This document shows, in pieces, positions 57,513-57,769 of a DNA stretch of 64,000 nucleotides. The position numbers and the translations under genes are program-made. Each line of letters opens with the position of its first letter. Position 1 is the stretch's first letter. The notes under the pieces were generated by a model, which saw only the letters and a list, made by a program, of their open reading frames with translations, was not told the DNA's origin and made no database searches. Origin of the DNA: Escherichia coli (GTDB taxonomy: Bacteria > Pseudomonadota > Gammaproteobacteria > Enterobacterales > Enterobacteriaceae); the NCBI RefSeq assembly GCF_029227855.1, contig NZ_CP074356.1; one strand, given 5' to 3'.

Positions 57513-57570
57513 TCTAAAATCCTCGGAGATGTGATCTGCCCGGCATTAAACCGCACAGATATAAAAGTGA

Positions 57571-57596
57571 AAAAGGGGGCCATATGCAGGCCCCCT
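57571..57596 (-). terminator. rpsB-tsf intergenic hairpin (partial terminator/attenuator)
   Basis: On minus strand GGGGGCCTGCATATGGCCCCC followed by TTTTTCACTTTT. Confidence 0.55.
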
Positions 57597-57769
57597 AACC
57601 AAACGTGTACTACCTGGTCTATAAGGGCTCTCCCCCTTCATATTTCGCGCCGCAGATGCGTTATCTTCGCTCGCTCATCCCGGTCACTTACTGATGTAAG
57701 CTCCCGGGAATTCTCGAGCTTGCCGCCTTTCTGCAACTCGAACTATTTTGGGGGAGTTATCAAGCCTTA

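Follow-up and report, generated by a model that had tools for sequence, protein, structure and literature searches.

The internal attenuator of the rpsB–tsf operon of Escherichia coli and the ERIC repeat that precedes it

The window considered here is a 64,000-nucleotide stretch of Escherichia coli contig NZ_CP074356.1 (assembly GCF_029227855.1). It carries the genes map, rpsB, tsf, and pyrH and is identical to K-12 in this region. On the minus strand, rpsB, tsf, and pyrH occupy positions 55789–58495, and map and glnD lie upstream on the plus strand. The spacer between rpsB and tsf, as set by the boundaries of the two reading frames, is 257 nt long (57513–57769). Many complete E. coli genomes match a 501-bp query across this spacer at 100% identity; among them are K-12 derivatives, with rpsB at 189874–190599 and tsf at 190857–191708. 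K-12 positions were converted throughout by the relation K-12 = 189874 + (58495 − window). The genes and the control elements that flank them are as follows.

58523–58609, minus strand: t44/tff, the S2-interacting autoregulatory rpsB leader (RF00127, 83.5 bits against a gathering score of 44)
57770–58495, minus strand: rpsB (ribosomal protein S2) coding sequence (list of open reading frames, and annotation in E. coli genomes 100% identical here)
57521–57524, minus strand: Shine–Dalgarno sequence GAGG of tsf (CGAGGA is invariant in the alignment)
56661–57512, minus strand: tsf (EF-Ts) coding sequence (list of open reading frames, and annotation in identical E. coli genomes)
56631–56648, minus strand: operon-end terminator after tsf (hairpin from the consensus scan; "terminator b0170 191729" in SMRT-Cappable-seq)

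The published transcription start site at K-12 189712 falls at window position 58657 and gives rpsB a 5′ UTR of ∼162 nt. The original prediction had proposed a long autoregulatory leader covering 58496–58860. The autoregulatory part of that proposal stands, with the S2-binding t44 leader at 58609–58523, but the length does not: the interval of 365 bp is the whole map–rpsB intergenic region, and what remains beyond the ∼162-nt UTR is the divergent map–rpsB promoter region. The t44 match covers part of this UTR and does not differ from the known RNA (Rfam RF00127; Tjaden 2002; Aseev 2008; Meyer 2009; Fu 2013), having the same position directly upstream of the rpsB start; Fu et al. 2013 describe t44 as an S2-interacting regulatory RNA. 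Term-seq also reports a strong 3′ end within the leader, at 58530 (K-12 189839), 35 nt before the start codon. The t44/tff RNA ends there, which suggests premature termination or processing in the S2-binding leader. At the other end of the operon, the SMRT-Cappable-seq table lists a known transcription termination site (TTS) centered at K-12 191729, which corresponds to the terminator after tsf. This terminator is leaky as well, with SMRT-Cappable-seq reads from the rpsB promoter running on into pyrH and frr.

Within the spacer, the following elements were recognized.

57763–57770, minus strand: 5′ half of stem H1, AUAAGGCU, overlapping the tandem stop codon and pairing with 57629–57621 (minimum free energy fold of the long allele)
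57630–57756, minus strand: ERIC/IRU (RU-1) repeat, a 127-nt imperfect palindrome nested in H1 (inverted arms, fold, consensus match)
57621–57629, minus strand: 3′ half of H1, AGCCCUUAU (alignment, complementarity at each locus, fold)
57597–57619, minus strand: weak hairpin H2, GACCAGG...UUUGGUU (fold, alignment)
57575–57684, minus strand: match to Rfam CssrA (RF02798), a Shigella RNA of ∼110 nt (136.2 bits against a gathering score of 93, E = 7e-29)
57574–57596, minus strand: attenuator (intrinsic terminator) hairpin, AGGGGGCC-UGCAUAU-GGCCCCCU (consensus scan, fold, conservation in Enterobacterales)
57563–57574, minus strand: U-tract UUUUU-CAC-UUUU (RNA 3′ end mapped at 57569, K-12 190800)
57534–57560, minus strand: hairpin H4, between the attenuator and the tsf Shine–Dalgarno sequence (fold and covariation)

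A strong GC hairpin followed by a T-tract had been predicted on the minus strand at 57571–57596, and the consensus scan places it at 57596–57574. The stem (AGGGGGCC/GGCCCCCT) has eight pairs, seven of them G-C, and closes a 7-nt loop; it is followed by TTTTCACTTT, the tail directly 3′ of the hairpin being UUUUCACUUU. Folded alone, the hairpin reaches −18.1 kcal/mol (z = −3.25), and 3 of 200 shuffled sequences are equally stable. It is the strongest of six terminator-like sites in 3 kb, a count to be read against 3.2 ± 2.0 sites in shuffles, so that the terminator pattern is not rare and by itself is weak evidence. The case that this attenuator exceeds chance comes instead from its conservation, together with an RNA 3′ end mapped at the U-tract.

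Conservation was assessed in 80 Enterobacterales rpsB loci, from each of which the rpsB–tsf spacer was extracted. RNAalifold on a MAFFT alignment of the upstream half recovered only a fragment of the terminator. Because MAFFT misregisters stems of unequal length, stems were sought by an alignment-free search, which showed that ∼75 of the 80 spacers have a perfect stem of the GGGGCC type followed by a T-rich tail, in 22 distinct versions. The variants include GGGGGCC, GGGGCC, AAGGGGCC, and AGAGGGCC; changes in one arm are compensated in the other, as in AGAGGGCCUG/CAGGCCCUCU and AAGGGGCC/GGCCCCUU, and the loops vary. In spacers free of insertions the hairpin stands ∼50 nt past the rpsB stop codon.

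Several data sets place an RNA 3′ end at this hairpin. Term-seq (Adams et al. 2021 supplement) puts a 3′ end at K-12 190800 (+), or window position 57569, the base after U5; it is present in three data sets of that supplement, with flanking sequence GACCAGG...GGCCCCCTTTTT / C ACTTTTATAT. In SMRT-Cappable-seq (Yan et al. 2018), reads capped at the start site 189712 have a TTS at 190800 and another at 191745. The M9 sheet gives 232 reads that stop at 190800 and 906 that pass, and a second sheet, hard to reconcile with it, gives 63 reads ending, 16 passing, and 852 ending within 50 bp downstream; these libraries are size-selected, and thus the read counts are not quantitative. A passage of Le Derout et al. 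2010 (PMC2834685), citing Aseev et al. 2008, derives rpsB mRNA and rpsB–tsf mRNA from a single promoter. The same passage states, from Northern blots, that monocistronic rpsB mRNA stops at an attenuator before tsf with about one-third read-through, a figure that is second-hand in this source (PMC2834685, citing Aseev 2008).

The element thus has what an intrinsic terminator has: a G+C-rich stem-loop, a U-rich tract immediately 3′ of it, and in vivo 3′ ends within that tract. It also has what an attenuator has when the word is used broadly, for an internal partial terminator of an operon, lying between the promoter and the cotranscribed tsf and being read through in part, as the reads from 189712 that end at both 190800 and 191745 show. 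We are confident that the hairpin at 57596–57574 and its U-tract are the known internal leaky Rho-independent terminator, or "attenuator," of the rpsB–tsf operon. The attenuator of the E. coli operon, reportedly the subject of work by An et al. in 1981, shares with the element here its locus, its sequence, the hairpin, the U-tract, the partial read-through, and the end at 190800; there is no difference between them, and they are the same element. The original prediction had claimed partial termination between rpsB and tsf and, with it, differential expression of S2 and EF-Ts from one operon. Both claims are borne out, the first by the Northern-based read-through of about one-third and the Term-seq and SMRT-Cappable-seq ends at 190800, the second by a monocistronic rpsB mRNA alongside partial read-through, which is established. 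Uniform read-through with no 3′ ends at the hairpin, the outcome that would have spoken against it, is not what the data contain, as an end maps at window position 57569. The reading was correct but ordinary, the attenuator being already known.

The prediction had also called the spacer structured. As a statement about stability this holds, for folding of the entire spacer yields −108.1 kcal/mol (z = −6.9), with none of 200 shuffles as stable. Most of that stability, however, comes from an element that the prediction had not recognized, an ERIC repeat that makes up half of the spacer. Its inverted arms lie at 57630–57656 and 57730–57756, and the 127-nt palindrome between 57630 and 57756 folds at −65.2 kcal/mol (z = −8.5; 0 of 200 shuffles as stable), as a long hairpin. 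Compared with the published 127-nt E. coli ERIC/RU-1 consensus, 99 of 119 bases (83%) are identical. The element matches the ERIC/IRU/RU-1 repeats (Sharples & Lloyd 1990; Hulton et al. 1991; Wilson & Sharp 2006; Delihas 2007, PMC2759123) in being a 127-nt imperfect palindrome, intergenic and transcribed, of a kind present in ∼10 copies per E. coli genome. The family was detected at 49,033 places in 5,425 E. coli genomes (median of 10 detectable copies per genome), and the copies are intergenic, with no annotated feature under the eight matches listed. A search for literature linking ERIC with rpsB or tsf found nothing relevant. The Rfam family V_AS5 was also considered over the repeat (57634–57757), but its score of 24.6 bits against a gathering score of 96 is a subthreshold resemblance only; the Vibrio V_AS5 "antisense RNA" family may itself have been built on an ERIC-like repeat.

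The ERIC repeat is present at this site in 4094 of 5424 complete E. coli genomes (∼75%). It is absent from the site in ∼1330 (∼25%), where the spacer is 123 nt shorter. In the short allele 10 unrelated bases (ACGCTCGTAC) stand in place of 133 bases of the long allele, the rest being identical, and thus the two alleles are not related by a clean insertion. The short allele looks like the ancestral, unoccupied state, as its layout matches that of Kluyvera, Citrobacter, and most other genera. The termini of the copy in the window are CTCCCCC/GGGGGAG (57750–57756 and 57630–57636), whereas those of the consensus are TATACCC/GGGTATA; both ends have changed complementarily, so that the terminal inverted repeat is kept. 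Neither the terminal TA nor a TA target-site duplication is visible at the termini and flanks of this copy. With such ends here and intact ends elsewhere, the repeat looks like an old, diverged member of its family, to judge from sequence comparison. The G-run of the altered terminus can pair with the conserved CCCUU at 57626–57622, as it does in the Rfam CssrA structure. In this genome the repeat is inserted into H1, where it forms an additional long hairpin arm. It is accessory, since all other parts of the spacer are retained in the quarter of E. coli genomes without it. Presumably it is neutral in function.

ERIC has entered this spacer more than once. Independent insertions with intact TATA(C/T)C...G(G/A)TATA ends, at different TA sites, are found in Citrobacter, a Serratia species, and several Erwinia spacers, in the same short spacer segment as that of E. 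coli. A copy in a Pantoea metagenome-assembled genome aligns only from consensus position 4, its left end not being seen. Insertions occur in both orientations (loci L005, L012, L043, L040, L074, L078, L064, and L082, at ∼3227–3550; Citrobacter, Serratia, Erwinia, and Pantoea). Citrobacter youngae is polymorphic for the spacer copy, CCUG 30791 having it and ATCC 29220 being without it. Elsewhere in this highly expressed and repeatedly colonized neighborhood, other genera carry ERIC in the map–rpsB, tsf–pyrH, and pyrH–frr intergenic regions (L004, L005, and L012 at ∼2170–2263; L010 at 4401–4517; L011, L013, and L037 at ∼5100–5290). The idea of an insertion hot spot was rejected: of the ERIC hits in the 80 loci, 8 fall within the spacer and 11 within other intergenic regions, a modest enrichment only. 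The use of the spacer by ERIC is recurrent, and there is no sharp hot spot. In Mangrovibacter and Siccibacter (L007 and L015), other insertions with TATACCC...GGGTATA-like ends are found between the attenuator and tsf; these possibly belong to a different MITE family with ERIC-like termini.

The repeat is enclosed by a stem that is conserved in its own right. The rpsB stop codon TAA (57772–57770) is followed by a second in-frame TAA (57769–57767), and this tandem stop, TAATAAGG, shows no variation across Enterobacterales; almost every one of the 80 loci keeps its complementarity, at 7 or 8 of 8 positions, to CCTTATTA, which stands 10–25 nt downstream of it. TAATAAG is likewise invariant in a 45-sequence alignment. 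In the fold of the long allele the whole ERIC element is nested within this stem, H1. H1 is an order-wide conserved stem upstream of the terminator that holds the tandem stop of rpsB. It is unusual for a stop codon to lie within a conserved stem. Between H1 and the attenuator, conservation of the H2 sequence extends to many genera but not to all, and spacers of the Klebsiella/Enterobacter type have lost it by deletion. H2 was set aside as a functional element, as its fold (−3.5 kcal/mol, z = −0.44) is not significant and it is deleted in several genera.

Downstream of the attenuator lies a second conserved structure, H4, which folds at −14.6 kcal/mol (z = −4.4). Across 25 Enterobacteriaceae, 95.5% of alignment cells are paired and 6 of 10 pairs are compensatory, a result reached in none of 500 shuffles, whereas controls in which the structure was slid along the alignment are 29–43% paired. 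H4 is thus well supported by covariation in the Enterobacteriaceae. It matched no Rfam family. In more distant genera this position is taken by another small hairpin (TATCTC...GAGATA).

The CssrA match is full length (model positions 1–111 of 111) and extends from the 3′ half of ERIC to the attenuator hairpin, its first ∼55 nt being ERIC sequence. Folded alone, this segment is not unusually stable (z = −0.95). In S. flexneri, Peng et al. 2011 observed a cssrA Northern band of ∼110 nt; a terminator prediction supplied the 3′ end, and the size of the band was the only basis for calculating the 5′ end. The RF02798 model and the window agree along the entire 136-bit match and end in the same terminator hairpin. 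They differ in the flanking genes assigned: Table 1 of Peng et al. 2011 puts cssrA between map and rpsB, whereas the Rfam model matches the rpsB–tsf spacer. Either that table or the provenance of RF02798 is mislabeled. CssrA is probably a 3′ fragment of rpsB mRNA bounded by the terminator rather than a separate gene, and would be a product of processing.

Two other accounts of the hairpin bear on these observations. RNA 3′ ends from Term-seq or long reads cannot alone tell termination from 3′-exonuclease trimming back to a stable hairpin, and Term-seq and SMRT-Cappable-seq report RNA ends only. The bicistronic RNA could therefore be cut downstream, for example in the AU-rich stretch or at H4, and then trimmed by exonucleases as far as the GC hairpin, which would act as a stabilizer of rpsB mRNA. 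Ragged trimmed ends of this kind would fit the 852 reads of one SMRT-Cappable-seq sheet that end within 50 bp downstream of the TTS. Exonuclease protection, however, has no need of a U-tract, which termination does require and which is conserved with the hairpin across the order, and the literature treats the site as an attenuator (PMC2834685). We consider such trimming very unlikely and infer that the 3′ end at 57569 arises by termination. It is also conceivable that the hairpin serves mainly as the terminator of an independent CssrA gene with a promoter inside ERIC, and Peng et al. 2011 assumed that their cssr RNAs had promoters of their own. Both the full-length match above the gathering score and the ∼110-nt band in S. 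flexneri are what such a gene would give. Against it, the 5′ end is only a calculated one and the 3′ end comes from a prediction, the segment is of ordinary stability, and its ERIC part (∼55 nt) is gone from ∼25% of E. coli and from most other genera, whereas the terminator is conserved everywhere. The SMRT-Cappable-seq tables searched contain no start site at 19067x–19069x. A scan of 56300–59300 found no σ70-like site there; since it also misses the real extended −10 promoter of rpsB, it is uninformative about a promoter for CssrA or for tsf. An independent CssrA gene is, in our judgment, the least probable account of the hairpin.

A further possibility accepts the attenuator and makes it responsive to translation. 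The nearly invariant CCCUUAU of the H1 3′ half has a possible alternative partner, UAGGGG in the terminator 5′ arm, and this CCCUUA:UAGGGG complementarity is found in almost all loci, including those with TAAGGG variants. When the nascent RNA is folded only as far as the terminator loop, with the 3′ arm still to be made, the Gs of the 5′ arm pair upstream with P = 0.89–0.98. In this thermodynamic model, upstream pairing of the 5′ arm could contribute to the leakiness of the terminator. H1 (UAAUAAGG:CCUUAUUA) might then act as an anti-antiterminator: a ribosome at the stop codon would free CCCUUA and favor read-through into tsf, and under repression by S2, H1 would form and termination would rise. 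Such a scheme would explain the decrease in bicistronic mRNA and Ts under repression by S2 that a 2024 review describes, and it would account for three segments that are nearly invariant in noncoding DNA, with both complementarities retained in almost every locus, TAGGGG and TAAGGG variants alike. It resembles the leader-peptide attenuators of trp and pyrBI, which likewise have a terminator after segments capable of alternative pairing, one of them under a ribosome at a stop codon. Unlike in trp and pyrBI, the part of the "leader" would be played by a full-length essential gene, and the fold is the same whether the ribosome blocks it or not. When the first 15 nt were held unpaired to mimic a ribosome block, the terminator 5′ arm paired upstream to the same extent in both the short and the long alleles, and once complete, the RNA adopted the terminator fold in every case. 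The partners of H1 and of the putative antiterminator do not vary and so give no covariation signal, and CCCUUAU resembles the 3′ arm of the terminator, which makes its complementarity to the 5′ arm partly automatic. The effect of S2 on tsf is more simply accounted for by Rho-dependent polarity in untranslated rpsB. As the ribosome-block folding changed nothing, we keep translational sensing as an unlikely refinement of the attenuator.

With the site taken as a leaky terminator, expression of the operon proceeds as follows. Transcription starts at the single rpsB promoter (start site ∼58657) and passes through the S2-binding t44 leader and then rpsB. At the U-tract a large fraction of the polymerases is released (3′ end 57569), leaving monocistronic rpsB mRNA, of which CssrA corresponds to the 3′-terminal ∼110 nt. 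The remaining polymerases continue into tsf and in part further into pyrH–frr. Termination at the attenuator with partial read-through thus lets one promoter give more S2 than EF-Ts message.

Overall, a single promoter and a leaky internal terminator set the ratio of S2 to EF-Ts message, an operon architecture of textbook level. The RNA annotated in Shigella as the sRNA CssrA is probably no more than the 3′ end of rpsB mRNA. The long and short alleles form a natural pair for asking whether ERIC affects termination or mRNA stability, and the conserved H1 and covarying H4 could bear on the control of EF-Ts by S2. If the attenuator did sense translation, it would offer a structural mechanism for the unexplained coregulation of EF-Ts by S2, and ERIC would be tolerated only within the loop of H1 or between H1 and H2, where the topology is kept.
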